A program made the position numbers and the translations under genes. Below are positions 1-19,957 of a DNA stretch of 64,000 nt, piece after piece. Within the stretch, counting starts at the first letter, position 1, and each line of letters starts with the position of its first letter. The stretch is from Myxococcales bacterium (GTDB taxonomy: Bacteria > Myxococcota_A > Polyangia > Nannocystales > Nannocystaceae), in contig JACKDW010000006.1 of the NCBI GenBank assembly GCA_020633295.1, positions 206,181-270,180 on the forward strand, in the 5' to 3' direction. The notes beneath the pieces were generated by a model that saw only the letters and a list, made by a program, of their open reading frames with translations, made no database searches and was not told where the DNA came from.

Positions 1-2
1 AC

Positions 3-155
3 GCGCAGGTCCCGGGCGACGCCGCGCCCGACCCGTCGTACCGTGTGCCCAGGGACACTGCGCTGCGCGAGCTGACTGAGGCAGGCTTCGTGCTGGAGCG
101 AGAGGAGACCTTCCTCGAGCACCAGTACTTCCTGATCCTCCGAGTCGGCCCGTGA
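3..155 (+). CDS. 3' end of an upstream CDS (partial; C-terminus ...LRELTEAGFVLEREETFLEHQYFLILRVGP). Function unknown, possibly a methyltransferase-like C-terminus. Its stop overlaps the GTG start of the next gene (GTGA).
   Basis: Open frame running in from the window edge to TGA at 153-155, co-directional with the cyclase gene and overlapping it by 4 nt. Confidence 0.3.
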   Translation, partial: AQVPGDAAPDPSYRVPRDTALRELTEAGFVLEREETFLEHQYFLILRVGP

Positions 156-2230
156 ACCCATCGCCCGTCGCGCCCTCCCCCACCTCCGATCACCCCGCCG
201 CGCCTGGCACCTCACCGAGGCGCCGCGCCCCTCGCGAGCAGCTCGACCGCGCGGAGGTGACCGTCCGCTACGCCCGCGCCGTCGCCCGGCTGGCCGCGCT
301 GCAGCGGCCCTCCGGGGCCGTCGCCGGCGAGGTCGGGTGGAACATCATGCTCGTGGCCCAGTACGTGATCCTGTGTCGCGTCGTCGGTCACGCGATCCCG
401 ACCGATCGCGCCGCGCGAATCGAGCGCGCGATCGAGCGCGCGGCTCGCCCTGACGGCGGCTGGGGCATGCACCCGCAGAGCCAGAGCTATCTGTTCCACA
501 CGCTCCTCGCCTACGTCGCGCTGCGCCTGCTGGGCCGCGCCCCCGACGACCCGCGCGTGGTCGCGGCGCGGCGCTGGATCCTCGGTCACGGCGGGGTCAC
601 CCGCGTGCCCACCTGGGGGCGCGTGTGGCTCGCGCTGCTCGGGCTGTACCCGTGGGACCACGTCCAGCCGATCGCGCCCGAGCTGTGGCTTCAGCCGGCG
701 GCCTCCCCCGCGCACCCCCGGCGCTTCTACTGCCACCTGCGCCTGATCTACCTCGGGCTGTCCTACGTCTACGGGTCGCGCCTGACCGCGGATCCGTGCG
801 CGCGGCTCGACGCGATCAAGCGCGAGCTGTACCCGGGCGGCTACGACGCGGCCCCGTTCGCCGCCCACCGGCACGAGGTCGCGTCGACCGACCTGTACGA
901 ACCAACAGGTGTGACCCTGCGCGCGCTGCTCGACGGCGTTCGCCGCGTCGAGGGGCGGGTCCCCGCCGCGCTGCGCCGTCGCGCGCTCGCGCGGGCCATG
1001 GACCACATCCGCTTCGAGTTCGAGAGCACGGACTACGTGTGCCTGAGCCCGGTCAACGGCATGCTGTTCTGCCTCGCGCTGTTCGCCGAGGATCCCTACC
1101 ACCCCGACCTCCCCCGCGCGCTCGCGGGGATCGAGTACTGGGTGTGGGAGGATGACGACGCGGGCATGCGCATCGCCGGCGCCCGCAGCGACATCTGGGA
1201 CACGAGCTTCGCGGTGCAGGCGCTGTGCGAGGGCCCGCGCGTCGACCACACCGCCCAGCTCGTCACGCGCATGTGCGACTGGCTCGCGCGCGCCCAGCTG
1301 CGCGCGGACATCCCGGGCGGCGCCGAGCACTACCGCGCCCCCGCGCGCGGCGGCTGGGGCTTCGCCGACGAGCGCCACCCGTGGCCGGTCAGCGACTGCA
1401 CCGCCGAGGCGATCGAGGCGCTGCTCGCCGCGGATCGCCTGCGACTCGGTCCCGACATCGCGCCGGATCTCGCGGCGGCCGTCGGCTTCATCCTCGCGCG
1501 CCAGAACGACGACGGCGGCTTCGGCTCCTACGAGGCGCGACGCGGCAGCCCGCTGCTGCGCCGCTTCAACCCGGCCGAGATCTACGGCAGCTGCATGATC
1601 GAGGAGAGCTACACCGAGTGCACCGCGAGCTGCGTGCGCGGCCTCGTCGCCGCGCGCGCGGAGCTCGGGCCGAGCGCGCCGCGGCGACTCCGTCGGGCGA
1701 TCGACCGCGCCGTTCGCCGCGGCGCGCGGCGTCTGCTCGCGGCCCAGGAGCGCTCGGGCGCCTGGGCTGGCTTTTGGGGCATCCACTACACCTACGGGAC
1801 GTTCTTCGCGGTCTCCGCGCTGCGCGCGGCCGGGCTGCCCGCGACCCACGCCGCGCTGCTGCGCGCGCGCGACTGGCTGCTCGAGCACCAGCGCGTCGAC
1901 GGCGGCTGGGGCGAGAGCCACGAGGGGCTGCTCCACGGGCGCCCCGCGCCGCTCCCCCCCGGGGATCCGAGCCTGGTTGTTCAGACAGCCTGGGCCGCGC
2001 TCACGCTGCTCGAGCTCCGCGCCGGCGCCAACGCCCGCGTCGACCAGGCGATCGAGCGCGCGATCGGGCTGCTCGCCGCGCGACAGCGCGCCGACGGGAG
2101 CTGGCCGCGCGAGCCCGCGACCGGCGTGTTCTTCAACACCGCGGTGCTCGACTACGATCTCTACCGCCAGGTGTTCCCGACCTGGGCGCTCGCGCGCTTC
2201 AGCGCGCGCGTCACTCGCTCGCCGGGTTGA
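152..2230 (+). CDS. Oxidosqualene cyclase (lanosterol/cycloartenol synthase family triterpene cyclase)
   Basis: 692 aa. Multiple QW-type repeats (GWG...). The catalytic-aspartate motif VSDCTAEA is the oxidosqualene cyclase (OSC) signature DCTAE, rather than the DxDDTA of squalene-hopene cyclases. Start is GTG at 152. Confidence 0.85.
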   Translation: MNPSPVAPSPTSDHPAAPGTSPRRRAPREQLDRAEVTVRYARAVARLAALQRPSGAVAGEVGWNIMLVAQYVILCRVVGHAIPTDRAARIERAIERAARPDGGWGMHPQSQSYLFHTLLAYVALRLLGRAPDDPRVVAARRWILGHGGVTRVPTWGRVWLALLGLYPWDHVQPIAPELWLQPAASPAHPRRFYCHLRLIYLGLSYVYGSRLTADPCARLDAIKRELYPGGYDAAPFAAHRHEVASTDLYEPTGVTLRALLDGVRRVEGRVPAALRRRALARAMDHIRFEFESTDYVCLSPVNGMLFCLALFAEDPYHPDLPRALAGIEYWVWEDDDAGMRIAGARSDIWDTSFAVQALCEGPRVDHTAQLVTRMCDWLARAQLRADIPGGAEHYRAPARGGWGFADERHPWPVSDCTAEAIEALLAADRLRLGPDIAPDLAAAVGFILARQNDDGGFGSYEARRGSPLLRRFNPAEIYGSCMIEESYTECTASCVRGLVAARAELGPSAPRRLRRAIDRAVRRGARRLLAAQERSGAWAGFWGIHYTYGTFFAVSALRAAGLPATHAALLRARDWLLEHQRVDGGWGESHEGLLHGRPAPLPPGDPSLVVQTAWAALTLLELRAGANARVDQAIERAIGLLAARQRADGSWPREPATGVFFNTAVLDYDLYRQVFPTWALARFSARVTRSPG

Positions 2231-3509
2231 CCTCGATCGTCGGCTCGACGCGCTCGACGCTGACGCGGATCACGTGGCGGTCGTCGGCCGCGAGGACCTT
2301 GAAGCGGATGTTCTCCCACACGAACACGGAGCCCGCGATCGGGATCTGACCGGCGAGGCGCGTCAAGAGATCGCCGATGCTGTCGACGCCCTCGAGCTCC
2401 TCGAACTCCTCGATCTTCAGGCGCTCCTCGACCCGCGTCAGGCTGTCCTGACCGTGGAAGTAGTAGACGCCGTCCTGCTGCTCCGGGCCCGAGCGCAGCG
2501 GCGCGCGGTCGGACTCGTCGAAGATCTGGCCGACGATCTGCTCGAGCACGTCCTCGAGCGTGATCACGCCGACCGTGTCGCCGGCGTCGTCGACGACGAT
2601 CCCGAGGTGCACGCGCTGCTCCTTGAAGCGGCGCAGCACGTCGTGGAGGCGCTGGGACTCGCTCACGAACACCGGCGGCCGCAGGATCCGCTCGATGGTC
2701 TCCTGGTCCGCCAGGCCGACGAGCTGCTTGATGTGCAGGATCCCGCGGATGCTGTCGACGTTGCCCTGGTAGACCGGCAGCCGGCTGTGGCCCGAGCGGA
2801 TCGCGACCTCGCGCACCTGCCGGGCGTCCCACTCGAGGTCGACGGCCGTCACGTTGTCGACCGGGACCATGATGTCGCGGACGATCTTGTCCTCGAAGCT
2901 GACGATGCGGCGCAGCAGCGCGGCCTGGTCGGCGTTGATCGAGCCCTGGCTGCGCCCGACCTTCACGAGGTAGCCGATCTCGTCCGACGTGACCGGGCTC
3001 GAGAGGCTGAGGTTGCCGCCGCCCGTGAAGCGCTTGAGCACGAAGTTCGTGATCCGCGTCAGCAGCCACAGCGCCGGCGACATCACGCGGCTGAGCGCGC
3101 TCAGGACCCCGAGCGCGGGCAGCGAGAGCTGCTCGCTGTAGGCGCGGCCGATCGCCTTGGGCGTGATCTCGCCGAAGATCAGCAGCAGGATGGTCGTCAG
3201 CACCACCGCGCCGCCGACCGCGTACTCGCCGTAGGGCCCCCCGTTGAGGTGGCGGATCGCCAGCGCGGTGACCAGCGCGCCCATGAGCGTGTTCGTGATG
3301 TTGTTGCCGACGAGGATCGTCGACAGCACGCGCACGGGGTGGTTGACCCAGAACTCCATCAGGCGACCGCGTCGCCCGCCCTCCTCGACCACGCGCCGGG
3401 CTCGATGGACGTCGAGGCTGGTGATCGCGGTCTCCGAGCCCGAGAAGAACATGCTCCCGATCACGCACAGCGCGACCACGAGCACCTGGAAGGCGTCGGT
3501 GTCATCCAT
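2211..3509 (-). CDS. CNNM/CorC/HlyC-family transporter-associated protein (DUF21 transmembrane domain + CBS pair + CorC_HlyC C-terminal domain)
   Basis: 432 aa. N-terminal hydrophobic DUF21-like region (VVALCVIGSMFFSGSETAITSL), CBS-like middle region, conserved CorC C-terminal segment. 3' end overlaps the convergent cyclase gene by 20 nt. Confidence 0.8.
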   Translation of the reverse strand: MDDTDAFQVLVVALCVIGSMFFSGSETAITSLDVHRARRVVEEGGRRGRLMEFWVNHPVRVLSTILVGNNITNTLMGALVTALAIRHLNGGPYGEYAVGGAVVLTTILLLIFGEITPKAIGRAYSEQLSLPALGVLSALSRVMSPALWLLTRITNFVLKRFTGGGNLSLSSPVTSDEIGYLVKVGRSQGSINADQAALLRRIVSFEDKIVRDIMVPVDNVTAVDLEWDARQVREVAIRSGHSRLPVYQGNVDSIRGILHIKQLVGLADQETIERILRPPVFVSESQRLHDVLRRFKEQRVHLGIVVDDAGDTVGVITLEDVLEQIVGQIFDESDRAPLRSGPEQQDGVYYFHGQDSLTRVEERLKIEEFEELEGVDSIGDLLTRLAGQIPIAGSVFVWENIRFKVLAADDRHVIRVSVERVEPTIEVNPASE

Positions 3510-4149
3510 GGCGACGAGCTCCCGGCGCGCGCGCGCGCCTCTGCGCGACGCGCCAGCGCGCGACAGGTTCGGGAACGTCGTCGTCAGCGTGTTCGGGGGC
3601 GTTCATGACTGCGAGAGCGTGCGCGCGAGCGACGAGGACCGCAGCGCGATGGAGCGGCTGGCCGCCCCACCCCGTCGGTGTACGGCGCACACACCCGATC
3701 GAGTGTGCCGCGCGCCCATACCATCGTCGTCATGCCCAGTCCTTCCGCGATATCGCGCTCGTCCGCTCACCTTCGATGTCGCCCCTCGAATTGGTCTGCA
3801 CCCGTCGTCGCCCGGCCTTCGCCGGCCTCGCTCGGGCCGCGATGGTCCTCGGCAGGATCCTCGGGATAGCGTCGGTTGTCCGGGGTGCGCTGGCAAGTCC
3901 GAACCTCGAGCGGGTTTCGAACGCTGTTCGTGGGCGGATTTGAGCGAAAATTGCACCGCGCGCGAACACCACGACACGCGTGTCAGGGTGGGATTTGCGA
4001 ACATCGCGCAGCTCGGACATTTGCGTCATAGCATGGACCCAAACTGCAGCCAGCGCCGCCTTCACTGAAACAATTTCAACGAGTTAGTGTGATGGATCAA
4101 TCCATGCTTCTAGTTCGGGCGTCGGCGGGACCCGCCGTACACTTCCTCA

Positions 4150-4320
4150 TCAAACCGTAGCTTGGCTTACCACTCGCTTGACTTGACCTGACCTGACTTG
4201 AACTGCACCTGGCTTACGTGACTTCCGGCCTACCTTAACTCACTTCGCTTAACGCATTGCTTAGCCTGGCCTGGTTTCACGTCTCTTGAGCTTATCTTGC
4301 GCTTGACTTGACTTATCGAA
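4150..4320. repeat. AT-richer intergenic island with tandem YTGAC pentamer arrays (cTTGAC TTGAC cTGAC cTGAC TTGAAC at ~4178-4204; cTTGAC TTGAC TTatcg at ~4296-4314) and recurring GCTTA words
   Basis: Read directly. GC content drops sharply relative to flanks. No ORF with plausible composition. Confidence 0.6.
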
Positions 4321-4450
4321 GACGACGAGCGCGTTCGCGCTTTCGCATGGTCGGTGCTGCTATCGAACATCTAAACTGGGGGGGGACCCAGGATGGCCTG
4401 GTCAGCTGTCCTGGGTTTCCGTTTTGGTTGGCGCTGGGTCCTCGCGCCAG

Positions 4451-5404
4451 CTAGCGCTCGTGCAGGTGGTCGTCGGGCTCGGGCACCCGATCCGCGAGCC
4501 GCCAGACCTGCTCGGCCGGCACCCGGTCCTCGATCCCCTCCTCGAGCTCGAGGCGCCCGGGGTCGTCGACGGGCAACGGCAGACGCGCGGCGTCGAGCAC
4601 GAGGTGGGCCCGCAGGGCGCACTGGGGCCCCAGCGGCATCGCGTGCAGCGCCGGCGCCCAGCCGTCCCTGCCAACTACAGCTGGCTCGAGGTGCAGGCGC
4701 CCGTCGCAGCGCGGGCACGGGATCTTGTGGTCCTGCTCGCCGCGCCACAGCGTGATCAGCGGCGGGTCGCCGCGGCCGTGCACGCGGCGGGCCTCGGACC
4801 ACCAGCGCGCGTCGAAGCGGTACACGCCGGGCAGCGCGTCCGCCGGGAGGATCCGCGCGCAGCCCTCGGTCCCGAGCAGCCAGCGCGCCGCCAGGTAGTA
4901 GGCCGGCGCCTGCCGGCCCTCGTGCTCACGTGTCTCAACGAACAGCAACGGGTGCTCGAAGTGGGGATCGAGCGACCACGAGCGCGCCAGCTCCTCGCGC
5001 GCGGCCCCGGCGAGCCGCCAGAACCGGTGCCCGACGACGACCCGCGTCAACCGATCGACGAACACGAACAGGACGTTCGAGAGCTTGCGCCACGGGTCGA
5101 TGGAGAGATCGCAGACCTTGAGCTTGTCGCACACGAGCCGCCCGGAGCGCCGCCGCCACACCGACACGAGCTTCAGCTCGATGCGGTCCTCCCAGTCGAG
5201 CACCGCGTCGCCGTCGTGGGGCTCGAGCCCGAGGTGCCACTGCAGCGCGTTGCCGTGGCGCCCCCGCGAGCGACGGCGCGTCACCAAGCGGGCCGCCGGG
5301 CCGAGCGGCAGCCCGAGCGCGGCCTCGGCGAGCGCCTCGAGGTACGCGCAGCGCCGCGCGGGCGCGTCGCGCCCAGGCGGCGGGTGACGTATCGGCATGC
5401 GCAC
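4451..5404 (-). CDS. Hypothetical protein (317 aa). Possible PD-(D/E)xK-like motif (HDGDAVLDWEDRIELKLV) and Cys-pair CPRCDGRL.
   Basis: Long ORF with protein-like composition (K, I, F, W present, unlike the Arg/Ala-rich artefact frames). Sits immediately downstream of the small lipoprotein gene. Confidence 0.45.
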   Translation of the reverse strand: MRMPIRHPPPGRDAPARRCAYLEALAEAALGLPLGPAARLVTRRRSRGRHGNALQWHLGLEPHDGDAVLDWEDRIELKLVSVWRRRSGRLVCDKLKVCDLSIDPWRKLSNVLFVFVDRLTRVVVGHRFWRLAGAAREELARSWSLDPHFEHPLLFVETREHEGRQAPAYYLAARWLLGTEGCARILPADALPGVYRFDARWWSEARRVHGRGDPPLITLWRGEQDHKIPCPRCDGRLHLEPAVVGRDGWAPALHAMPLGPQCALRAHLVLDAARLPLPVDDPGRLELEEGIEDRVPAEQVWRLADRVPEPDDHLHER

Positions 5405-5461
5405 CGGGTTCCTCCCATCCGTGGGGGCAGCGAGCGACCGCAGCGCGATCGCCCCGGCGGC

Positions 5462-5635
5462 CTACTCCTCCGCGTCCGCGTCCGGCTTCGCCTCGTCGTC
5501 CGCCTTCTTGGCGTCCTTGACGTTCTTGGTGTCCTTCTTGGCCGCGGGCTTCTCCTCTTTCTTCTTTCCGGGCTGCTCCGCGCAACCGAAGCTCACCAGC
5601 GAGAACCCGAGCAACAAAAACGCCATCTTCTTCAT
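5462..5635 (-). CDS. Small Lys/Glu-rich lipoprotein (signal peptide MKKMAFLLLGFSLVSFGC lipobox, then KKKEEKPAAKKDTK...)
   Basis: Start placed at the internal MKKM of ORF 5462..5710 and may be off by 1-3 nt. Classic lipobox. Confidence 0.45.
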   Translation of the reverse strand: MKKMAFLLLGFSLVSFGCAEQPGKKKEEKPAAKKDTKNVKDAKKADDEAKPDADAEE

Positions 5636-5706
5636 CGTCGACACCCTCCTCGCCCGCGCGCGGGCCGAGATAATGTACCCGACGGTATCGAGTTTTCGCG
5701 CCGCCG

Positions 5707-6180
5707 TCATGCCGTGCCCGCGACGGCTTTGAGGATGGTCTCGCGGATCTGGTTCGCGGTCGCGTAGTCCGGGCAGTAGCTCAGCGCCGGGTCTCGGCTT
5801 GACAACGCACGAAACCGCCGCTCTTCGCTCGCGAAGTCATACGAGAGGATCACCGGCCCGCGGAAGCCCGCGTCGCGCAGCGCTCGCAGGATGAACATGC
5901 CCTGGTTGTCCTGCTGAAAGCTGCGCGCGCGCGCGACGTCCCCGTTGAAGCGCGCCGTCAGGGACACGAGGTCGCCGAGCAGCGCCTCGACCGGGGTGCG
6001 ATCGAAGCGCATGTCGAGGTACACGACGTCGGGCCGCTGGCTCCGCGCGAGCGCGCAGGCCTGCTCGCCGCTGCGCGCCTGGGTGTAGCGCATCCCCTCC
6101 GCGACGAAGGTCGACAGGTTCGTCAGGTACTCGTCGCCGTCCTCGACCACGAGCACGTGCACGGGTCGTCCGCTGCTCAT
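5707..6180 (-). CDS. Single-domain response regulator (receiver domain)
   Basis: VHVLVVEDGDEY...VVYLDMRF receiver motifs. Start ATG at 6178-6180 overlaps the TGA stop of the upstream kinase gene (ATGA). Confidence 0.75.
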   Translation of the reverse strand: MSSGRPVHVLVVEDGDEYLTNLSTFVAEGMRYTQARSGEQACALARSQRPDVVYLDMRFDRTPVEALLGDLVSLTARFNGDVARARSFQQDNQGMFILRALRDAGFRGPVILSYDFASEERRFRALSSRDPALSYCPDYATANQIRETILKAVAGTA

Positions 6181-9100
6181 GCCTCCTCCTCCTCGACCGT
6201 GAAGAACCTCAGCACGACCGCCTTCTGCCACCCCTGCTCGGGCTCGACCGCGATCGAGCCATCATAGCGCGACAGCAGGTCCGCGGTGATGCCCATGCCG
6301 CGCTCGACATAGCGCCCGCGCAGCATCTCGTTGCTGAGCTTCTCGGTCGACTGGTCCTTGATGCGGATCGCCAGCGTCGTCAGCCCCGTGATCTCGTCCA
6401 TCTCGTTGATCAGCTCCACGCCGAGGCGGATCGGCTTGGGCGCGTACAGGACGCTCGAGTGCAGCGAGTTGCGGATCACGTTCGTCAGGATGTCGTCGAG
6501 GTCCGTGCGGAACACCCGGATCGCCGCGCCCTCGCCCGTCACCTCGGGCGCCGCGACCTCGACGCCCGCGAACTGGGACTCGGTGACGACGAGCGCGTGC
6601 ACCTCCTGCAGCGTCTCACGATCGACGCGCACGATGCAGAGCGATCGGATCAGGCTGCTGAGGCGCTCGAACGCGTCGCGCCCGAGGATCTGCCCGCAGC
6701 GCAGCAGGCGCTTGGACCAGTCGAGCTTCCGCGACGCGCTCGCGTTGTGCTGCAGCTCGCTGAGGCCGCGCAGCGACTCGAACGCGCGGATCATCTCGCG
6801 GAAGATCGGGTCCTTGCGGTGGAGGTTGAGCGTGACGCCGTGGCTGCGCGCGACTTTCTCGAGCTCGTCGACGTAGCCGAGGAAGCGCCCGTAGATGCCC
6901 TGATCCCGGGTTGAGCGCTCGCGCTCGGCGCTCGCGCGCCCGCGCCCGCGTCGACGCCGAGATGGCTCTCCGAACAGGCGCCGCGCGACGATCGACGCGC
7001 GGTTCTCCGCGCCCGGCTCGTCGACCTCGAGCGCGTGCCCGACATCGCTCAAGAACGCGGTGTTGTGCTTGAGGATCTCGTGGCGGATCAGGCTCAGGAT
7101 CCGCGCGATCTCGGGGAAGCTCGTCGGCGCGCGCTCGAGCAGCTGGCTCAGCGACGCGCCGCGGAAGCGCCGGTAGATCCGCAGCGCCGGCAGCGAGATC
7201 AGCAGGAGCCCGAGCGCGCTCGCGAGGATGTAGATCTGCAGGAACCAGGCGTCGAGGTCGTCGCGCAGCTCGAGCGCGACGTCCCAGTGAAGGTCGAAGT
7301 CGCTCGCCTCCTGGAAGTACAGGTCGAGCTGCTCCGACGCGCCGACCAGGCGGTACTTCTCGAGCAGCAGCTGCGCGACCAGGAAGCGCCCGATCGTCGA
7401 GCCGAGCTCGGCCGCGCGCTGGAGGTGTGGGAGCGCCTCGTCGGGCAGCTCCTTGCGCAGCAGCAGCCCCAGGCGCTCGTGGACCTCGCGCTGGTCCTCC
7501 TTGAGCTGCAGCGAGCGCTCCCAGAACGAGCGCGCGTCGCCGGGGCGGTTGTCCGCGGACGCGACCTTCGCCAGCTCGTTGAGGACCACGACCTCGCCGG
7601 GGAACTTCTTCAGGGCGCGCCGCAGGATCTTGTCGGCCTGCGACCAGTCGCCGTCGTCGCCGACGCGCAGGTAGGCCTCGTTGATCATCCGCTGCAGCTC
7701 GGGCTCGAGGCGGCGGAGGTCGCTCGGCGGCGCGAGCGGGATCGCGGGCTCCTCCTCGCGCAGGCGGAAGTCGAGGTTGCGCAGCGCCTCGGCGGCGCGC
7801 GCGTAGTCGGGGTGATCCGACGACACCTCCTCGAGGAAGCGACGGTAGTGCACGCGCGCGCGCTCGCGGTTCGTCCGCGCGTACAGCTCGCCCAGGAACA
7901 GGCGCAGCTGATGCAGATCCGGGCGCAGCTCGAGCGCCTTCTCGAGGTGCTCGATCGCGGCGCGGTCCTCGGTCGGCGAGAGGCGCTTGGCGTAGATCAG
8001 CCCGAGGCGCATGTGCGCCTCGTAGTCGAAGCGATCGAGCCGTATCGCCATCCGCAGCTCGTGCACCGCGTCGGCGAAGCGCTCCTGGCGGGCGTAGACG
8101 AGCCCCTGCACGTAGCGCGCGCGCTGAAACCACGGCGAGTCCTTGATCGTGCGCTGCAGCTCGGACTCGGCGGTCACCAGATCGTTGCGCTTGATCGCCT
8201 CGACCGCGCGATCGAAGCTCGCCTGCGCCTCCGGCGTCGGGCGCCCGCCCTGCTCCTTCTCGATCGTCGCGAGCTCGAGCTCGAGCTGAAGATCCTCGAC
8301 GGCCTTGCGCGCGCGCTGCGAGAGCGGGTGCCCCGGGTACGCGCTGATCAGCTGCGTGTAGACGCTGATCGCCTTGGCCGTCTCGCCGCGATCCTGATAA
8401 CTCCCCGCGAGCCGGCTGAGCGCCTCCGCCTGGGGCGTCCTGCCGTCGCGCGTACACTCCTCGCGGTAGCGCTCGATGTCGCCGATCGCCTCGTCGCGCA
8501 GCGCCTGGGCCTCGCGCGTCGAGCCCAGCGACTCCGCGCGCTCGAGCCGGAGCTTGGCCAGCGTGAAGCGGATGTCGTCGGGGCGCCCCGGCGTCTCGGG
8601 GTCCTCCTCGGCCATCTCGACCGCGAGGTTGAGGCGCTCGTCCTGGTAGCGCTCCCCGCACTCAGCCATCCACGCGAACACGTTCGCGCGCTCCTCGAGC
8701 CACAGCCCGCGCGGATCGTAGGTCCGCAGCATCTTGAGATCCGCGATCGCGCGCCGCGGGCAGCTGCGCCGCTTCGGCTTGGTGTAGTGCAGGTGCGCGC
8801 GCCCGCGCAGCGCCCCCGGATCCCCGCGCTGGAGCTTGAGCGCCGACGAGTACTCGCGGATCGCCTCGTCGACGCGCCCCTCGCGTTCGAAGCGCTGCGC
8901 GCGGCTGAGGTGAATGTCGAACTCGAGCGCGCGCATCTCCGCCGGGTCGCCGTCGGGCACGTCGAGCCCGTCGGTGTCGCCGTCCTCGTCGTCGGTGTCG
9001 GGGCCGGGCGGCCGCGGCAGCCCTGGGTCGCCCGCGCCGGCGCGGCGATCGAGCACGCCGGGGAGCGGGTCCTCGGCCGGGGCCCGGCGCGCCCACGCAG

Positions 9101-9185
9101 TACCTGACCCAAGAGCCAGAAAACACGCGAGCGCGAGCGTCCGCCGGCGGCGCCGCGAGAGGGGCTCGATCGTGCTCGTCTCCAC
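6177..9185 (-). CDS. Sensor histidine kinase with signal peptide, large extracytoplasmic TPR-repeat domain, one TM helix and C-terminal HisKA/HATPase-like region
   Basis: 1002 aa. N-terminal signal (LALACFLALGSGTAWA), many TPR-like repeats, TM (LQIYILASALGLLLISLPAL), H-box-like IRHEILKHN, N-box-like ILTNVIRNSLHSS, G-box-like ERGMGITADLLSRYDGSIAV. GTG start at 9183-9185. Confidence 0.7.
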   Translation of the reverse strand: METSTIEPLSRRRRRTLALACFLALGSGTAWARRAPAEDPLPGVLDRRAGAGDPGLPRPPGPDTDDEDGDTDGLDVPDGDPAEMRALEFDIHLSRAQRFEREGRVDEAIREYSSALKLQRGDPGALRGRAHLHYTKPKRRSCPRRAIADLKMLRTYDPRGLWLEERANVFAWMAECGERYQDERLNLAVEMAEEDPETPGRPDDIRFTLAKLRLERAESLGSTREAQALRDEAIGDIERYREECTRDGRTPQAEALSRLAGSYQDRGETAKAISVYTQLISAYPGHPLSQRARKAVEDLQLELELATIEKEQGGRPTPEAQASFDRAVEAIKRNDLVTAESELQRTIKDSPWFQRARYVQGLVYARQERFADAVHELRMAIRLDRFDYEAHMRLGLIYAKRLSPTEDRAAIEHLEKALELRPDLHQLRLFLGELYARTNRERARVHYRRFLEEVSSDHPDYARAAEALRNLDFRLREEEPAIPLAPPSDLRRLEPELQRMINEAYLRVGDDGDWSQADKILRRALKKFPGEVVVLNELAKVASADNRPGDARSFWERSLQLKEDQREVHERLGLLLRKELPDEALPHLQRAAELGSTIGRFLVAQLLLEKYRLVGASEQLDLYFQEASDFDLHWDVALELRDDLDAWFLQIYILASALGLLLISLPALRIYRRFRGASLSQLLERAPTSFPEIARILSLIRHEILKHNTAFLSDVGHALEVDEPGAENRASIVARRLFGEPSRRRRGRGRASAERERSTRDQGIYGRFLGYVDELEKVARSHGVTLNLHRKDPIFREMIRAFESLRGLSELQHNASASRKLDWSKRLLRCGQILGRDAFERLSSLIRSLCIVRVDRETLQEVHALVVTESQFAGVEVAAPEVTGEGAAIRVFRTDLDDILTNVIRNSLHSSVLYAPKPIRLGVELINEMDEITGLTTLAIRIKDQSTEKLSNEMLRGRYVERGMGITADLLSRYDGSIAVEPEQGWQKAVVLRFFTVEEEEA

Positions 9186-9188
9186 GCG

Positions 9189-10907
<1,719 letters not shown>

Positions 10908-11101
10908 CGCGCTCGTCGTTCATATCCCCTCGCAGCCGGCGGTGAAAGTCGCGCCTGCGCTGCGCGTCTTGATCGGGTCCCGTCGACACGACCGACGCCC
11001 GATTTGTTTCGGCGCCGGCGCAGCTCCGTGTCGGGGGCCCACGCACAGCGGCCGACACGCCGTCTCGCCCAAAAACGGCGTCCAGGCGCTATTGGCGCCC
11101 G

Positions 11102-11545
11102 CTATCGCGCCCTCAGCACGCGTTGCAGCGCGCGCAGCTCGACGCGAATCACGTCCTGGGCCCCCCGGATCGCGGGCGCGTAGGGCGTGAGCGCCGAGCC
11201 GCCGACGCGGACCGCCGACTCGGCCTCGCGCAGGGTGGCGACGGCCTCGCGAACGCGACGCAGCTCGCCATAGGTCGAGAACACCGCCGCGCCCAGGTCC
11301 CGCGTCAGCCGCTCCCAGACCTCCCACGCGGCCTCGGGCGCGCCGTCGGCCCGCGTCCGCGTCCGCAGCAGATCGCGCTGCAGCGCGCTCGTCAAGAGCG
11401 CGCTCGCGGGCCCGCGCCAGGCGTCGTCGTCGAGGTTCGCCGACATCCAGGCGACGTACTTCCCGAGGTCGTGCTTCAGCGCGGCGACGCGCTCGCGCAG
11501 GACATCGAGCTCGATCCCGAGGTCAGCGGGTGTCACTTCGTCCAT
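11102..11545 (-). CDS. Hypothetical protein (147 aa)
   Basis: ORF with balanced composition, co-directional with and downstream of the 11615..12088 ORF and upstream of the sigma-54 activator. Confidence 0.4.
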   Translation of the reverse strand: MDEVTPADLGIELDVLRERVAALKHDLGKYVAWMSANLDDDAWRGPASALLTSALQRDLLRTRTRADGAPEAAWEVWERLTRDLGAAVFSTYGELRRVREAVATLREAESAVRVGGSALTPYAPAIRGAQDVIRVELRALQRVLRAR

Positions 11546-11614
11546 ACGGGAACCCCGTCGCCCTCCCGCGCGCGCGCGCCTCGGAGAGCCGTCCTGTCAC
11601 TACAACCAGATCGT

Positions 11615-12088
11615 TCACGCGGGCGCGTGGTAGCGAGTCGCGCGCGCGCGCCCCGAGCTCGCGATCTTCCCCATCTTCTTCATCCACGCGAGGTAGCCGC
11701 GAAGCTCCGCGACGTCGACCACGACCTGCTTCGCCAGCTGCCCGATCGTCAGCGGGCCCTGCTGGACGGCGACGAGGATGTCGCGATACAGGCGCGCCTC
11801 TCGGCTCTCGGTCGTCTCGCCGTCGCCCTCGCTGCGCGCGAGCGCGACGACCTTGCGTCGCGAGGAGCGGGCGCCCTCAGGCGGCGCTTCGCCGCCGAGC
11901 TGACCGAGCGCCTCGCGGAGCTCGTCGATCGTCAGCTCGCGGATCGACGCCCCCGCCTCGCTGTCGAGCAGCTCGCGGAGCTTGGTCGTCGGGGGCATCT
12001 TGGCGACCGTGTTGATGGCGGCCTTGCGTAACAGGTTGGCGCGGTTCTGCTGGAGCGCCGCCTCGATGAGCTGGGCGATCTCTGTCAT
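11615..12088 (-). CDS. Hypothetical protein (157 aa)
   Basis: ORF with plausible composition. First gene of the putative minus-strand operon. Start uncertain (no obvious RBS; internal Met at residue 31 is an alternative). Confidence 0.4.
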   Translation of the reverse strand: MTEIAQLIEAALQQNRANLLRKAAINTVAKMPPTTKLRELLDSEAGASIRELTIDELREALGQLGGEAPPEGARSSRRKVVALARSEGDGETTESREARLYRDILVAVQQGPLTIGQLAKQVVVDVAELRGYLAWMKKMGKIASSGRARATRYHAPA

Positions 12089-12228
12089 GATGGGACGATG
12101 CGTTTCTGGTGTATGACGGGGAGCGCGTACACGCGTGTCAGGGGGGGTCCGCCGCGTCGCGGTGGCACGAGCAGAGACGCCAGCGCGCGGCCGACGTCGC
12201 GTCCTCTAGGTCCGTAAACCAGGAAGAT

Positions 12229-12253
12229 ATGTGCAGACCCGAGGTCCGCACAT
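12229..12253 (-). terminator. Hairpin ATGTGCAGAC-CCGAG-GTCCGCACAT (9/10 bp stem) followed on the minus strand by a U-rich tract. Candidate terminator downstream of the Cys-rich protein gene.
   Basis: Read directly. Lies in the lower-GC intergenic region 12130-12420, which also contains a perfect TATAAT at 12269-12274 on the plus strand. Confidence 0.3.
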
Positions 12254-12424
12254 CTTGAATAGCACCTCTATAATCGTTCCACCATACCGAGTGTCCGTTG
12301 TCAATGCGGGCGCCCCACAATTCATCGCGCAGGCCGTCCCTATTGCACACGCACACGCGTGCGCCTCCGTGACCGCCACTCGCCGCGTGGCCGTGGTGTC
12401 AGTCCGTCGACGCGCCGCCGGTTG

Positions 12425-13138
12425 TCAATAGCAGGTCAAATATCCGATATCGATCGTCGGCGCCTGGCCGCACTGAAACCCGCAGTTTTCGCAGGGCAGC
12501 TCACCTTGGAGACCTACGCCCCACGTCGCCGCCCCCGACTCGCCGCCGAAGAACAGCCACTCGCCGGCGTAGCAGTCGACGAGCTCATAGGTGTCGACGC
12601 CGTCGCCGGCGGTTTGAAACGCGCTCTCGGGCCCCGGCCACACCCAGGAGTTGTCCTCGGACCAGAGCCGCCACTGGATGTCGAGCCCGTCGTAGCAGTC
12701 GTCGGTGAGCAGGAACTCCTGGAGGATCGTGCGGTTGCAGACCTCAGCCGCCTCGTCCTCGCCGCCCGGGCAGTCGGCCTCGCCGTCGCAGACGCGGTCC
12801 TCCGGCAGGCAGTCAGCGCCGGGGCAGACCGCGACGTGACCGACGTCGCAGTAGCACGCGTTGTCCGAGCAATGGGCGTTGACGCCACACGACGGCTCGC
12901 ACGCGCTGCCGTCGGCCGCTGGCGCGGTCGGCTGACAGCCCCTGTCATTGTAGGGATTGCCGGAGTAGCCCTCGTCACAGAAACAGACACCAGCCTCGCA
13001 GCCGCCGTCGGCGCTGCAGGTGACGCCGGCGCACGGATCGCCATCCTCCACGTCCTCGACATAGATGACGCATCCGAGCGCCATCCCGATCACGCCGAGC
13101 GCGAGGCATGCCCCGGCCGTCCGCAGAAATCGATCCAT
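12425..13138 (-). CDS. Secreted cysteine-rich protein with EGF-like / LDL-receptor class A-like modules
   Basis: Start at the internal Met (MDRFLRTAGACLALGVIGMALGCVIY signal/lipobox) of ORF 12425..13345. ~30 Cys. Motifs CDGEADCPGGEDE (LDLa-like) and CxCDxGYxG (EGF-like). Confidence 0.55.
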   Translation of the reverse strand: MDRFLRTAGACLALGVIGMALGCVIYVEDVEDGDPCAGVTCSADGGCEAGVCFCDEGYSGNPYNDRGCQPTAPAADGSACEPSCGVNAHCSDNACYCDVGHVAVCPGADCLPEDRVCDGEADCPGGEDEAAEVCNRTILQEFLLTDDCYDGLDIQWRLWSEDNSWVWPGPESAFQTAGDGVDTYELVDCYAGEWLFFGGESGAATWGVGLQGELPCENCGFQCGQAPTIDIGYLTCY

Positions 13139-13437
13139 TCGTCCATCAGTGTAGCGCGTTTTTTGATGGCGCAGGGCGAAGTCCGTGATCTCCACCATCA
13201 CGCGCGAGCACGTCGTTCTCGGCCCGCGCAGCGCGCGCCGGCGCGGCCCCGGGCGCGCGGCGACCGTGACACCGGCAGATGGCGAGGACGGGCCGCGCGC
13301 GTCTGCCAGCGATGGCACATTGCGCGGGCTCCGCGTGAAACACACGACATGTCTGTAATGACAGGTAATGGCATTCCGCCGTCGCCGACGCTCGGGCGCC
13401 GCGAGCGATTTTCAACGGCCTGCTACTCTCCGCGGCC

Positions 13438-14775
13438 ATGACGTCCCTGCGCGACCGAGACGCCCGCGTCCTCTGGCACCCCGCGACGCACTTCCGCGAT
13501 CTCGAGCGGCTGCCGCCGATCCCGGTCGAGCGCGCCCGTGGGAGCTGGCTCTTCGACCACGAGGGGAACGCGATCCTCGACGGCATCTCGTCGTGGTGGA
13601 CGAGCGTGCACGGGCACGGGCACCCGCGGATCGTCGAGGCGATCCGCGCGCAGGTCGAGCGCCTCGACCACGTCATGTTCGCGGGCTTCACCCACGAGCC
13701 CGCGGTCGCGCTCGCGGAGTCGCTCATCCGGCGCGCGCCGCCCGGCTACGGCAAGGTGTTCTTCGCCGACTGCGGCTCGGCGGCCGTCGAGGTCGCGCTG
13801 AAGATGAGCTTTCAATATCACCAGCAGACCGGGCAGACCCGGCGCACGCGCTTCGCCACGCTGCGCAACAGCTACCACGGCGAGACCATGGGCGCGCTCG
13901 CGGTGTGCGGCTCGGACGCCTACCGCGACGCCTTCGCGCCGCTGCTGATGGACGTGCTCGAGCTCCCCGCGCCGGCGCTCGACCGCCACGAGCACGCGGA
14001 CCTGCGCCGCGACGTCGGCGCGGACTCGCCGGAGGCCGACGCGGCGGTGGCCCTGCTCGAGCGTCATCAGCACGAGCTCGCCGCGCTGGTGATCGAGCCG
14101 CTGATTCAGTGCGCCGGGCGCATGACGATGACCGGCGCGGGCTTCTACCGTCGCCTCACCCTGGCCGCGCAGCGCCTCGGCGTGCACGTGATCAGCGACG
14201 AGATCGCGGTCGGCTTCGGGCGCACGGGGCGGCTGCTCGCGAGCGAGTGGGCCGGGGTCACGCCCGACCTGCTGTGCCTGAGCAAGGGGCTCTCGGGCGG
14301 CGTGCTGCCGCTCGCGTGCGTGCTGATCCGCGAGGGCTTCGAAGCCGCGTTCTCGGGCGCGCCGGCGCGGAGCTTCATGCACAGCCACACCTTCACCGCC
14401 AACCCGGTCGCGTGCGCCGCCGGCCTCGCGAGCCTCGAGCTGTTCGATGAGACTCGTCTGCTCGCGCGCCTCGACGGCCGGATCGAGGCGGTCGCGCGCC
14501 GACGCCACGCGGTCGCGGAGGGCTGCACGCGGGTCCGTCACCACCGCCAGCTGGGCATGATCGCGGCCTTCGAGGTGCGCGACGACGACGCCGCGCCGCG
14601 CGTGCGAGGCGGTCGGCTCGGACTCGCGCTCCGCGAGGCCGCGCTCGCGCGCGGGGTGCTTCTCAGGCCGCTCCACGATACGATCTACTGGATGCCGCCG
14701 CTGACGATCTCGGACGAGGAGCTCGATCGTCTGGCCGCGGTCACGCGCGACGCGATCGAGGCGGTCCTGGGATGA
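13438..14775 (+). CDS. bioA: Adenosylmethionine-8-amino-7-oxononanoate aminotransferase (DAPA aminotransferase)
   Basis: N-terminal RVLWHPATHF...PIPVERARGSWLFD and SWWTSVHGHGHP are typical BioA. PLP-lysine region LSKGLSGG. 445 aa. Confidence 0.9.
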   Translation: MTSLRDRDARVLWHPATHFRDLERLPPIPVERARGSWLFDHEGNAILDGISSWWTSVHGHGHPRIVEAIRAQVERLDHVMFAGFTHEPAVALAESLIRRAPPGYGKVFFADCGSAAVEVALKMSFQYHQQTGQTRRTRFATLRNSYHGETMGALAVCGSDAYRDAFAPLLMDVLELPAPALDRHEHADLRRDVGADSPEADAAVALLERHQHELAALVIEPLIQCAGRMTMTGAGFYRRLTLAAQRLGVHVISDEIAVGFGRTGRLLASEWAGVTPDLLCLSKGLSGGVLPLACVLIREGFEAAFSGAPARSFMHSHTFTANPVACAAGLASLELFDETRLLARLDGRIEAVARRRHAVAEGCTRVRHHRQLGMIAAFEVRDDDAAPRVRGGRLGLALREAALARGVLLRPLHDTIYWMPPLTISDEELDRLAAVTRDAIEAVLG

Positions 14776-16136
14776 GCCCACGCGCCGCGCGCCTGGCCGC
14801 GCTCGCGCTGCTCGCGACGGGCTGCGCGCGCGATCCGGCGGCCGAGGTGCGCATCGATCTGGCGAGCCCCTGTGAGACGCTCGCCCCCCGGGTCGTCGAC
14901 GCGCGGATCATGTCGGAGCGCACGCCGCTCGCGCTCGTCGGAGACCAGGCGGCGCCGAGCCCCGAGGAGCGCGGCTGGCTGCTGACGCTCGGCCCGGACG
15001 GTCGCGCGCTGGAGCGCCTCGGCGAGGCGCTCGCGCCGATCGAGCTGGAGCCGCCGCTCGCAACACACACCTGGCTTCGACCGGGCGCGCGGCCCGGCGA
15101 GGCCTGGGTGCTGATCTTCGATCCGAGTCACCGCGCGATCTGGCGGATCGACCCGAGCGGCGAGATCGTCAAGGGCGAGCCCCAGGATCCGTTCCCGCCC
15201 GGACCCTACGACGACTACGCGCGCGCGCTCGTGTTCATCGACACCCTGCCCTTCGTCGTCGCGGTGCGCGCCGCGAGCGAGGGGCCGGAGCTCGACGCCT
15301 GGCTCGCGCCCATCGACGCCGAGCTCGCGCTCGGCGACCCGTGGCACTTTCAGTTCACCACCGGCTGCGGCGCGGACCCGCAGGTCTGCGAGCTGCGCTA
15401 CCTCTCGCGCGTGCGCCTGCTCGACGTCGCCGCGCCGCGCGGGCGCGACCCAGGGCACGTGCTGCTCGGGATCCGCGAGGATGTCTCGGAGGACATCGGT
15501 GAGTACAACCCGCGGACCCTGTACGCGGCAACGCTGAGCTTCTCGCTCGCCGACACCACGCACGAGCCGATCGCGGTGCTGCGCACGAACTACCCGCTGC
15601 TCGGCTGGGAGTTCTCGGCGGAGTACAACGCGCTGATCCAGCCCGCCGAGCTCGCGGTCGACGACACGGGCTTCTACATCCTCGCGGGCCTCGAGCTCGT
15701 CGACCTCGAGACGCCGACGGGCGAGGAGCTCGATCGCCAGGTCGTGCGCCACAGCGTCGTCTCGGGCATCAGCGTGCGCTTCGGCGCGCTGCCGGCCGAG
15801 TACGCGCCGCACCTCCTGCAGGGGGCGAGCGCGGCGGCGCTCGGGTGGTTTGAGGACGATCAGTGGATCAACGTGCCGATGCGCGAGTCGGACTTCGAGC
15901 TCGAGCGCGCGCGCGCGCTGCCGCTCGAGCCGTCCGCGTCGCGCGTGCTCGGCCCTGGCGGACACGGGCACTACCTCCTGCGGCTCGACGGCGACGAGGT
16001 CGCCCGCGTCGCCGCCTCCTGCGACGTCGACGTCGAGCAGGACGTCGACCTCCGCGCGGCGACGGTGGAGCTGCCCGCGCTCACGCGGCCGCGGCTGGAG
16101 GCCGCCGTCGTCGAGCTGCGCGCGCGGGGCCGCTGA
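14772..16136 (+). CDS. Hypothetical lipoprotein (454 aa), translationally coupled to bioA (ATGA overlap)
   Basis: Signal/lipobox MSPRAARLAALALLATGCARD. No recognisable domain. Confidence 0.5.
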   Translation: MSPRAARLAALALLATGCARDPAAEVRIDLASPCETLAPRVVDARIMSERTPLALVGDQAAPSPEERGWLLTLGPDGRALERLGEALAPIELEPPLATHTWLRPGARPGEAWVLIFDPSHRAIWRIDPSGEIVKGEPQDPFPPGPYDDYARALVFIDTLPFVVAVRAASEGPELDAWLAPIDAELALGDPWHFQFTTGCGADPQVCELRYLSRVRLLDVAAPRGRDPGHVLLGIREDVSEDIGEYNPRTLYAATLSFSLADTTHEPIAVLRTNYPLLGWEFSAEYNALIQPAELAVDDTGFYILAGLELVDLETPTGEELDRQVVRHSVVSGISVRFGALPAEYAPHLLQGASAAALGWFEDDQWINVPMRESDFELERARALPLEPSASRVLGPGGHGHYLLRLDGDEVARVAASCDVDVEQDVDLRAATVELPALTRPRLEAAVVELRARGR

Positions 16137-16201
16137 GCTTCGCGGTGCTCACCGCGGCTGCGCGCTTCGTCGCGGAACGACTCGATGTTCGAAACGCGCG
16201 C

Positions 16202-16230
16202 GCCGTCGATCCATGTGCTGGATCGACGGC
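16202..16230. terminator. Perfect 12-bp stem hairpin (GCCGTCGATCCA-tgtgc-TGGATCGACGGC) between convergent genes. Candidate bidirectional terminator, no U-tract.
   Basis: Read directly. Sits in the 150-bp gap between the 3' ends of 14772..16136(+) and 16290..17153(-). Confidence 0.4.
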
Positions 16231-16289
16231 GCGGCGCGGGCGTGGACGGCCCGAGACCGCCTCCACCGCGCGGCCTGGACCGCGCGCGG

Positions 16290-17153
16290 CTACGTGCCCG
16301 GCTTGAACAGCACCGAGGTCGGGACCGGCGTCGACGCGGCGCCGCCGTCACGATTCCAGCTGAACAGCACCTTCACGCCCAGGGACGATTGGTAGAAGTA
16401 GTCGATCTCGATGCCGTACTCGCCGGCGGCCATGTAGACGGGCTCACACTTCTCGGTGGGCGCCGTGTGGTTGCCGTCGTTGTCGACGACCAGCGTCTCG
16501 TCGAGCAGCACGCGCGAGCCGGCCATGCTGTTGAGGCAGAGCGTGTACTCGCCCTCCTCGACGATGTTGAGCGATCCGACGAACTGCATGCCGATGGTCT
16601 CGCCGGAGACGCTGACGCCCGGGAACGCGCCGCGGGCCTCGTAGTTGAGCTCGCGGATCGGCACGGTGGCCGCCGGAGCGCCGAGCGTGGCGAAGTCGGG
16701 GAGGCTCTCGGTGCCAGCCGGGAGCGCGAAGACGTTGGCGAGGAGGCCGTTCGGATCCGCGGTCGGGTCGGGCTGGGTCGTGCCCCCGCCCTTGCTGGGG
16801 ATCTTCAGGCCGCCGGTGCCGAGCTTGACGCCGGGCTTGCGGTTCGGCGAGACCGTGTTGCCGCCGCCGCCGCCGCCGCCGTCACCGCGGGGTGGAGCCT
16901 TGGCCTGGAGCCGCTGGACGCCCTCGCGCGATCCGAGACCGCGGGTCGAGGTCCCAGAGCGCGGCTTGCGTCCGCTCGTCGCGGAGTCGCCCGCGCCGTC
17001 GCCCGCAGCACCCGCGCCAGCGTCGCCTGGGTTCGCGACGTCGTACTGAACGTTTCCGGCGTCAGGGTTGTTCGGGTTCGAATTGGCCGATGAGGTCGCG
17101 CAGCCGGTAACGAGCCCGAGGCTGACGAGCAAAACATGGTGCGTACGAATCAT
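16290..17153 (-). CDS. Lipoprotein with C-terminal PA14-like domain
   Basis: Signal/lipobox LLVSLGLVTGCATSS. Gly/Pro-rich linker. C-terminal region (GETIGMQFVGSLNIVEEGEYTL...IEIDYFYQSSLGVKVLFSW) matches the PA14 beta-barrel pattern. Confidence 0.6.
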   Translation of the reverse strand: MIRTHHVLLVSLGLVTGCATSSANSNPNNPDAGNVQYDVANPGDAGAGAAGDGAGDSATSGRKPRSGTSTRGLGSREGVQRLQAKAPPRGDGGGGGGGNTVSPNRKPGVKLGTGGLKIPSKGGGTTQPDPTADPNGLLANVFALPAGTESLPDFATLGAPAATVPIRELNYEARGAFPGVSVSGETIGMQFVGSLNIVEEGEYTLCLNSMAGSRVLLDETLVVDNDGNHTAPTEKCEPVYMAAGEYGIEIDYFYQSSLGVKVLFSWNRDGGAASTPVPTSVLFKPGT

Positions 17154-17493
17154 TGTGGATTCCTCTTGGGTGGAGATAGGCGTCGAACTTCTGACGACGC
17201 CAGCACGAGTCGGATTCAGGGCAGGTCGGCCTACACCTTTTCCCCGACCGCAGTTCGCTCACAGCGCGAGCCCGAATTAGAGCCAAGTGTACGCTGTGGC
17301 CGGCAGGAATGTCCTGCGGCCGCGCGGTTTTATCCAAGATCAGCGACCCGCAGCAATGCTTGCGCGCGATGGGTAGCACGCGGCCGTCGCGTCGGGTATC
17401 CAAGAGCATCGTGCGATCCCCGTACGCACAGGACGCAGGGCTCGAGTTCGCGCGCAGCGCCGCGGATCACGGGCGCGGGCGCGGAGGTCGCGG

Positions 17494-19128: not shown

Positions 19129-19143
19129 GGCCGGGCGCGCCCT

Positions 19144-19938: not shown

Positions 19939-19957
19939 GCGCGCCGCGACGCGCGTG

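Follow-up and report, generated by a model that had tools for sequence, protein, structure and literature searches.

A 64,000-nt stretch of DNA from a Myxococcales bacterium of the family Nannocystaceae (GenBank assembly GCA_020633295.1, contig JACKDW010000006.1, forward strand positions 206,181 to 270,180; hereafter the window, whose numbering is used throughout) has a base composition of about 70% G+C and carries seven co-directional genes on its minus strand between 4451 and 12088. They encode, among other products, a large membrane sensor, a sigma-54-dependent enhancer-binding protein (EBP) and a stand-alone receiver-like protein. An original prediction, made from the sequence alone, had taken them for one operon with a branched phosphorelay, and had named a small lipoprotein and a nuclease-like protein as candidate outputs. 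Its observations are in part confirmed and largely correct; its interpretation was right in part on the components and probably wrong on the outputs. The sigma-54 promoter that is conserved in this neighbourhood precedes instead a predicted non-coding RNA of about 310 nt (~4119 to 4429, plus strand). Below we describe the locus and argue that the two-component system of the cluster may well activate this RNA.

Codon-position GC content supports all seven open reading frames (ORFs), with third-position values (GC3) of 0.85-0.95. In the direction of transcription the genes encode a 157-aa protein (11615 to 12088), a 147-aa helical protein (11102 to 11545), the EBP (9189 to 10907), a 1002-aa sensor (6177 to 9185), the receiver-like protein of 157 aa (5707 to 6180), a 57-aa lipoprotein (5462 to 5635) and a 317-aa protein resembling the nucleases MutH and Sau3AI (4451 to 5404). 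The tiny gaps or overlaps that had been ascribed to the whole series are confined to two junctions: 3 nt lie between the EBP stop and the GTG start of the sensor gene (TAG cgc GTG), and the sensor and receiver genes overlap by ATGA, with a GGAGG run ahead of it. The remaining gaps are 57-194 nt (69 nt from the 157-aa to the 147-aa gene, 194 nt from there to the EBP gene, about 71 nt from the receiver to the mini-lipoprotein gene, and 57 nt from the latter to the 317-aa gene). The conserved block is wider than 4451-12088. It also includes an eighth minus-strand gene, for a Cys-rich secreted lipoprotein of 237 aa (12425 to 13138), and, convergent with the cluster, the RNA gene with its promoter (3972 to 4429, plus strand).

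Homologues of the 317-aa protein occur in the genomes of 66 species, each of which is assigned by name or typing to Nannocystaceae, Nannocystales or unclassified Myxococcota. Throughout Nannocystaceae there is one copy of the gene per genome, with 50-84% identity and a constant chromosomal position. The gene order around it, whose co-occurrence in relatives had been suggested as a check, is the same in about 50 of 55 informative Nannocystaceae loci. The usual order is Cys-rich lipoprotein, 157-aa protein, 147-aa protein, EBP, kinase, receiver, 4HBT thioesterase, mini-lipoprotein and nuclease. Two distant Myxococcota metagenome-assembled genomes (MAGs; loci L073 and L074, related loci being designated by L numbers) keep the EBP, kinase and receiver genes, and a homologue of the 147-aa protein is found in L073 only (E 1.8e-7).

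The promoter emerged only through the comparison of 66 related loci. Neither the exact consensus TGGCAC-N5-TTGCW, which the original prediction had proposed to look for, nor a degenerate version of it has a match in the window, and a scan of the window with three mismatches gave fewer matches than chance. In the related loci, a -24/-12 element of the form TGGC[ACT]C-N5-xTGCA lies 280-670 nt past the nuclease stop, on the opposite strand. Copies scoring 9-10 of 11 stand at this syntenic place in 46 of 69 loci, and the background is about one such motif per 25 kb of strand (~90 in ~2.3 Mb of strand from the same loci). The window holds the corresponding site, TGGATCAATCCATGCT (4093 to 4108, plus strand; TGGATC-N5-ATGCT), which agrees with the consensus at 7 of 11 positions and keeps GG-N10-GC in register. 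At the orthologous position the nearest relative (L003) has TGGCACCAAAGCTGCT, with identical spacing to the flanking conserved blocks. A recurrent TGGCACAAGCTCGGCA inside the nuclease ORF was rejected as a promoter and is an artefact of coding conservation. A scan for sigma-70 promoters found none.

Two candidate upstream activating sequences (UAS) precede the promoter on the plus strand, CGACACGCGTGTCA (3972 to 3985) and GGACATTTGCGTCA (4015 to 4028). They belong to a palindrome, TGACA-N4-TGTCA, whose half-sites are nearly invariant across the family. In 1.19 Mb, 76 of its 82 occurrences are downstream of the nuclease gene, nearly all at the syntenic spot, and its density there is 34-fold over the coding background. 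In every one of 42 loci the centres of the two sites are -127/-84 or -116/-72 relative to the -24 GG (-115/-72 in the window). These two distance classes are one helical turn apart, and the sites themselves are separated by 43-45 bp. Because the palindromes are helically phased to the -24 element, we assign them to the sigma-54 promoter and not to the divergent neighbour gene. Weak copies of the palindrome (2 mismatches) are also present at 12127-12140, 12388, 13304 and 13345, in the intergenic regions flanking the Cys-rich lipoprotein gene. Autoregulation through the copy at 12127-12140, upstream of the 157-aa gene, was considered and dropped, since palindromes cluster there only in the window and its nearest relative, with 3 of 43 loci overall having such sites.

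The predicted RNA begins with a 5' hairpin (4123-4137), followed by a pyrimidine-rich body (~4140-4320) with about 19 CUU-centred repeats, a hairpin P1 of variable sequence (4327-4342), a conserved single-stranded block, GCAUGGUCGGUGCUG (4345-4359), a run of G residues, and a terminator whose loop, UGGUC, is invariant (stem 4386-4416, U tail 4417-4429). The T-run after the terminator hairpin is present on the plus strand only, and this was the only notable terminator in a terminator scan. A covariance model of the 3' domain finds a single match in the window (4320-4431, 106 bits, E 9e-26); 57 other loci also have one match apiece, in every case next to the nuclease gene, and the two distant MAGs have none. 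In the terminator, 11 of 15 pairs have compensatory changes, and its cells are paired in 96% of cases as compared with 44-59% when the partners are slid, the alignment having been fitted to the model. No gathering-level Rfam match is present in window positions 1-20000, with only chance-level ones (E > 2) in 3850-4470, and a literature search found no paper on a Nannocystis small RNA (sRNA). A search of the window for targets complementary to the conserved block GCAUGGUCGGUGCU returned only the self-match. We consider it quite probable that the RNA is real and depends on sigma-54.

The body of the RNA varies in length across loci (put at 200-500 nt or at 240-600 nt) and is poorly conserved in sequence, and it folds no more stably than shuffled sequence (z +0.8). 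It is rich in short repeats. The motif T[GA][GA]C[TC]T occurs 13 times as against 1.5±1.1 in shuffles (z=10), and z exceeds 4 in 36 of 41 loci; the sequences that served to define the motif also served to measure its enrichment. Each RNA has about 20-30 CUU regardless of its length, with a modal spacing of 5 nt. The repeats are degenerate words of 5-15 nt and are unlike the GGA motif of CsrA and the A-rich motif of Hfq/Crc.

The EBP is the NtrC-type sigma-54 activator that had been predicted. It matches Sigma54_activat (PF00158) at E 5.2e-52, and its AAA+ domain (residues 168 to about 445) has the motifs GATGTGKS, LFLDEIG and a GAYTGA loop, read in the sequence and conserved in the family; its orthologues are 67-90% identical. 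Residues 1 to about 150 form an atypical receiver. This receiver gives a partial Response_reg match (31.7 bits, cut-off 30.2) and retains DD, D53 and T, but its conserved Lys is replaced (YLLDD) and about 33 residues are inserted after the acceptor Asp. The C-terminus has a conserved ERQYLE…GRKxQLRMNQxGIKLR segment, in which a resemblance to a Fis-like helix-turn-helix (HTH) was judged by eye. The stand-alone receiver, with orthologues of 70-94% identity in 61 loci, is similar. Its Response_reg match (26.5 bits) is below the same cut-off and covers the N-terminal half only; ED, D and S are present, with Cys in place of Lys (YCPDY). The two receivers are paralogues with 33-36% identity and a common insertion of ~33 aa. 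A branched phosphorelay is plausible, one kinase being beside two paralogous receivers, but both of these lack the conserved Lys.

The sensor had been predicted to be a kinase with a secreted input domain of tetratricopeptide repeats (TPR). The repeats are clear (TPR_2 at 1e-16 and others, residues ~90-600). The protein has a signal-like N-terminus and one strong transmembrane helix (644-671), from which we place the TPR region of about 600 aa outside the cytoplasm. The kinase domains are far less evident. No match to HisKA or HATPase_c was obtained in the window protein at E<0.1. Among close relatives 3 of 22 matched HATPase_c, with a best E of 0.12, and distant relatives reach 3e-4 to 7e-4 over nearly the full profile, with 20-21 bits where the Pfam cut-off is 26.4. 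Close homologues of the last 331 residues number only about 25 and come without exception from Nannocystaceae or Myxococcales; sequence searches of the PDB with this region were empty. The evidence for a kinase comes from structure and from motifs. An AlphaFold model of the C-terminus, built with the homologue alignment as input, has a pLDDT of 86 and gives 299 PDB matches at E<=1e-3, the top 50 of which are histidine kinases or related kinases; LvrB, CpxA, HK853 and WalK are the best, at about 1e-7. The modelled core consists of a DHp helical hairpin and an alpha/beta CA domain, with a helical insertion of ~95 aa between the DHp helices. The H-box RHEILKHNT, the N-box NVxRNSL and the G2 box ERGMGIT are invariant in 49 orthologues and recur in distant relatives. 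The H-box SLIRHEILKHNTAFL contains His702, which is invariant in at least 90% of the 49 orthologues and in the distant members and is the putative phospho-acceptor. The G1 box keeps only its Asp; no family member has its glycines (DxS/AxE instead of DxGxG). The kinase profiles thus failed on the C-terminus, an outcome that the original prediction had itself named as grounds for refutation. The predicted fold and the family-wide motifs nevertheless show a divergent DHp+CA core, and we therefore call the protein a divergent kinase-like sensor, with catalysis as a putative activity.

Current annotation misses this sensor-kinase family entirely. An exhaustive profile search with the kinase collected 439 representative clusters. 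None of the ten that were sampled is annotated as a kinase: they either lack a name or are described as TPR or unrelated proteins, and those named by organism come from Myxococcota/Myxococcales MAGs, one being labelled Proteobacteria. A 370-aa protein from JGI (P0023), which carries the annotation acyl-CoA thioesterase YciA, aligns with the final 21% of the kinase at 92% identity; its ORF was probably mis-called in a close relative, with the end of the kinase gene read on into the thioesterase gene. In two loci the sensor gene is called as two ORFs: L001 (7656-10624, 782+207 aa; Nannocystis pusilla assembly GCA_049060185, where the EBP and an aminotransferase are also split) and L002 (7726-10690, 773+229 aa; a MAG). 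These splits are probably frameshift errors, as the kinase of ~1000 aa is one ORF in other genomes.

These components suggest a circuit. The membrane sensor would detect a signal in the cell envelope, perhaps with the help of the two lipoproteins, and would signal to the sigma-54 activator, whose receiver is of the same unusual type as the stand-alone one; the latter could act as a competing phosphate acceptor or as a modulator. The activator most probably binds the two phased palindromes 72 and 115 bp upstream of the sigma-54 promoter, and would thereby switch on the RNA of about 310 nt on the opposite strand, just past the MutH-like nuclease gene. We give this reading as a whole a probability of roughly 55%. 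Its central step, activation of the RNA by this EBP, is the most economical explanation because the EBP is the only one in the 64-kb window and because similar arrangements are known in QseEF/glmY, CbrB/crcZ and PxrKR/pxr, and we favour it by a modest degree. As to the action of the RNA, its largely unstructured repeat body would most likely serve as a decoy for an RNA-binding protein, and less likely as a series of short base-pairing seeds. The decoy is favoured because of the repeats, although as a specific claim it is tentative.

Several observations weigh against this circuit. It is neighbourhood that ties the EBP to the palindromes, and the C-terminus of the EBP has no match to a Pfam HTH (HTH_8). 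The RNA itself is predicted from sequence. The promoter in the window is the weakest copy of the family (7/11; -24 element TGGATC), so that the RNA may be poorly expressed in this genome. The two distant loci that keep the EBP, L073 and L074, have no comparable UAS or promoter nearby, and the repeat enrichment is subject to the shared use of sequences mentioned above. In four or five genomes (L010, L011, L045, L067 and L063) more than 9 kb separate the RNA and nuclease genes from the regulatory genes, or the pair is rearranged relative to these. Finally, classical phosphotransfer is not assured, given the missing G1-box glycines of the kinase family and the replaced Lys of both receivers. A separate sigma-54 match in L074, TGGCACACCCCTTGCT (578-593, 10/11), precedes a DUF2330 gene by about 65 nt and is 7.7 kb away from the EBP-kinase-receiver trio of that locus, with no UAS palindrome near it.

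The reading closest to the original prediction is that the genes form one operon with a branched phosphorelay, the lipoprotein and the nuclease-like protein being its outputs, through co-expression or under sigma-54 control, and that the true targets of the activator are elsewhere in the genome. The conserved order of the co-directional genes, the translational coupling of EBP, kinase and receiver, and the presence of two paralogous receivers for one kinase would all fit such an operon. We nevertheless regard it as unlikely. Sigma-54 promoters are not enriched upstream of the 317-aa, EBP, 157-aa or Cys-rich lipoprotein genes, so that sigma-54 control of the mini-lipoprotein and the nuclease-like protein is not supported. 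In several genomes (L010, L011, L045 and L067) the nuclease gene does not adjoin the regulatory genes, and the fully equipped sigma-54 promoter with phased UAS beside the cluster would drive something else. The output of an 'operon' may thus sit on the other strand, outside the coding genes.

The RNA could also be real and be controlled by a different sigma-54 activator encoded elsewhere, its proximity to the cluster reflecting conserved gene order. Myxobacterial genomes have many EBPs. In the four broken blocks just listed, moreover, the RNA stays with the nuclease gene and not with the EBP gene. On the other hand, the EBP of the cluster is the sole one in the window and the sole Sigma54_activat gene called in the annotated 20-kb loci; the HTH-like segment at its C-terminus hardly varies across the family, and the same holds for the UAS half-sites. 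Known sigma-54-dependent sRNA genes, furthermore, usually adjoin the genes of their activators (PMC5113210, PMC8745638, PMC10217877). Control by another activator is accordingly improbable, and we retain the EBP of the cluster as the preferred regulator.

A third possibility concerns the chemistry of signalling and not its target. The sensor may be a pseudokinase with pseudo-receivers, which would communicate by protein-protein contacts or ligand binding in place of His-Asp phosphotransfer. Consistent with this view, the DxGxG G1 box is missing family-wide, Pfam thresholds are unreached, Lys is replaced in both receivers and the DHp helices are separated by the helical insertion. However, the candidate phospho-His, the Mg-binding Asn, the adenine-contacting Asp and the G2 box are all invariant, as are the acidic pocket, the acceptor Asp and the Thr/Ser of the receivers. 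Such invariance is unexpected in a dead enzyme pair, and we consider the pseudokinase view unlikely; a putative phosphotransfer from the sensor to the EBP receiver remains part of our preferred circuit.

A defence or toxin-antitoxin-like role for the nuclease and the repeat RNA as a pair (compare type III ToxIN), in which the regulatory genes would be mere neighbours, is very unlikely. The two are tightly linked even after rearrangement, as such a pair would be, but neither the nuclease nor its neighbours has a PADLOC match beyond a generic AAA+ domain, and membership in a defence system was rejected. The gene is single-copy, family-wide and at a fixed place, unlike patchy defence islands. ToxIN has tandem repeats of ~36 nt upstream of, and co-directional with, an endoribonuclease toxin; here the repeats are short degenerate words, and the RNA is convergent with the nuclease gene and has its own sigma-54 promoter. 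Equally remote is the view that the pyrimidine-rich stretch is no functional RNA but decayed sequence, a repeat element of the DNA or the gene of a small protein. The variable length and poor conservation of the body, and its fold no more stable than shuffles, would allow this. But conservation extends to the promoter, UAS and 5' hairpin on one side of the body and to the 3' block and terminator on the other, its longest ORFs are short and not conserved, and the CUU count is held at ~20-30 despite the changes in length.

The rearranged loci bear on the partner of the RNA. In L011 (8955-9332), L063 (1824-1934) and L032 (15269-15753) the RNA gene has a different orientation or place with respect to the nuclease gene but is still within a few kb of it. 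That the pair stays close through rearrangement, including inversions (L011, L063), suggests that the RNA and the MutH-like protein are functionally connected. The nuclease could be the partner of the RNA, as its gene never separates from the RNA gene. In the boldest form of our proposal, a cryptic kinase and a sigma-54 activator would drive a new class of long CUU-repeat RNA that acts as a decoy for an RNA-binding protein, possibly the MutH-like nuclease itself. We propose this only tentatively; if it is true, no sponge-type sRNA system will have been described in Myxococcota before it.

Circuits that join a two-component system, a sigma-54 activator and an sRNA govern important changes of lifestyle in other bacteria, among them quorum sensing, carbon catabolite repression, envelope homeostasis and the development of fruiting bodies. 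The myxobacteria of this family have large genomes rich in natural products, and to our knowledge almost none of their regulation has been characterised. The locus offers a concrete, testable circuit of a known type that is conserved across the family, with an undescribed RNA family absent from Rfam, a kinase family that a failed Pfam search did not exclude, and a link between the RNA and a MutH-like nuclease that has withstood rearrangement.

One of the closest known systems is the QseE(GlrK)/QseG/QseF(GlrR)-GlmY system of Enterobacteriaceae, in which a membrane kinase, the lipoprotein co-sensor QseG and an NtrC-type activator acting on UAS control glmY, a sigma-54-dependent sRNA gene in the same locus (PMC6075780, PMC8745638). 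GlmY is a protein decoy that sequesters RapZ (PMC7073468). The present locus has counterparts of these in a kinase-like membrane sensor, lipoproteins, an NtrC-type activator, candidate UAS and a predicted sRNA gene. The two loci differ in that the RNAs are unrelated in sequence, the present one being negative in Rfam, longer, repeat-rich, convergent and at the far end of the cluster. The sensor described here, moreover, has a TPR ectodomain of ~600 aa and a kinase core that Pfam does not recognise, and the cluster adds a stand-alone receiver, a winged HTH (wHTH) protein, the 147-aa protein and the MutH-like nuclease.

In the CbrA/CbrB-CrcZ system of Pseudomonas the genes of the activator CbrB and of the sRNA CrcZ are syntenic in all genomes, and CrcZ is a long RNA with several copies of a short A-rich motif (AAnAAnAA) that titrate Hfq/Crc (PMC5113210). 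Activator-sRNA synteny and a long RNA with a repeated short motif are common to both cases. The motifs differ, being CUU-centred and pyrimidine-rich here and A-rich in CrcZ, and crcZ is directly downstream of, and co-directional with, cbrB. Within the same phylum, the sigma-54 two-component system PxrK/PxrR of Myxococcus xanthus adjoins the gene of the sRNA Pxr and is needed for it (PMC10217877). Pxr is a short sRNA with three stem-loops by published description, whereas the RNA proposed here is without any Rfam match. With the decoy sRNAs, such as CsrB/RsmZ, CrcZ and GlmY, it shares multiple copies of a short motif in accessible RNA, its own body being no more structured than shuffled sequence.

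The 317-aa protein bears out the PD-(D/E)xK motif that had been suspected in it. Sequence searches gave no Pfam, NCBIfam or PDB match. Its AlphaFold2 model (pLDDT 93) has only two significant fold matches in the PDB by Foldseek, MutH (2aor_B, E 7.9e-5, target-normalised TM-score 0.51) and Sau3AI (E 2.9e-3). Likeness to MutH and Sau3AI (PDB 2aor, 4pxg) extends over residues ~1-200 and includes a D…E-x-K triad at matching spacing. D70, E76 and K78 are invariant in 33 sequences, as are C230, C233, H254, C262 and H267. The protein differs from both nucleases in the lack of a sequence-level match, in an extra C-terminal domain of ~110 aa rich in Cys and His, in its restriction to Nannocystaceae, and in having an RNA gene as its partner in place of Dam/MutSL or a restriction-modification system.

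The remaining proteins of the block are small. The 57-aa lipoprotein has a ribosome-binding site and an ATG at 5635, a signal peptide, a lipobox Cys and a Lys/Asp/Glu-rich tail; the lipobox and the following (C)AEQxGKKK are kept in six orthologues, in agreement with its earlier description as a mini-lipoprotein. The 237-aa lipoprotein has a GC3-supported frame, a signal peptide, an LGC lipobox and an EGF-like Cys pattern. It has no Pfam match, and its orthologues occupy the same position in 45 loci. The 157-aa protein encoded at 11615 to 12088 ends in a winged HTH of the ArsR/HlyU type, as judged from an HTH_5 match under the Pfam cut-off (E 2.5e-4) and a match of its family profile, built from 10 orthologues, to HlyU (E 0.003); orthologues are present in 48 loci. 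The 147-aa protein, also found in 48 loci, matches nothing in Pfam or the PDB significantly; its motif LKHDLGKYVAW is invariant, and its gene abuts or overlaps the EBP gene in other genomes.

Differences in gene content are found at both sides of the nuclease gene. The gene of the 4HBT (hotdog) thioesterase lies between the receiver and mini-lipoprotein genes in 58 related loci (L005 9282-9680 and L006 9278-9727 among them) and is cleanly absent from the window (5636-5706), its nearest relative (L003/L007), L025 and L036. An AA_kinase-family gene follows the RNA promoter region in most relatives and is missing in the window and L003. No remnant of either gene is detectable within the window, where about 460 nt of non-coding DNA (3510-3970) precede the gene of a CNNM/CBS/CorC transporter (2211-3509); neither strand of this DNA has a match to an Rfam riboswitch. 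L003 has a short tandem repeat, GAGCCCGTGGA(C/A) x4, immediately ahead of its CNNM gene (~11905-11990, reverse strand), and this repeat does not occur in the window. In one MAG (L066, 4764-9394) an insertion of about 4.6 kb separates the receiver and thioesterase genes.

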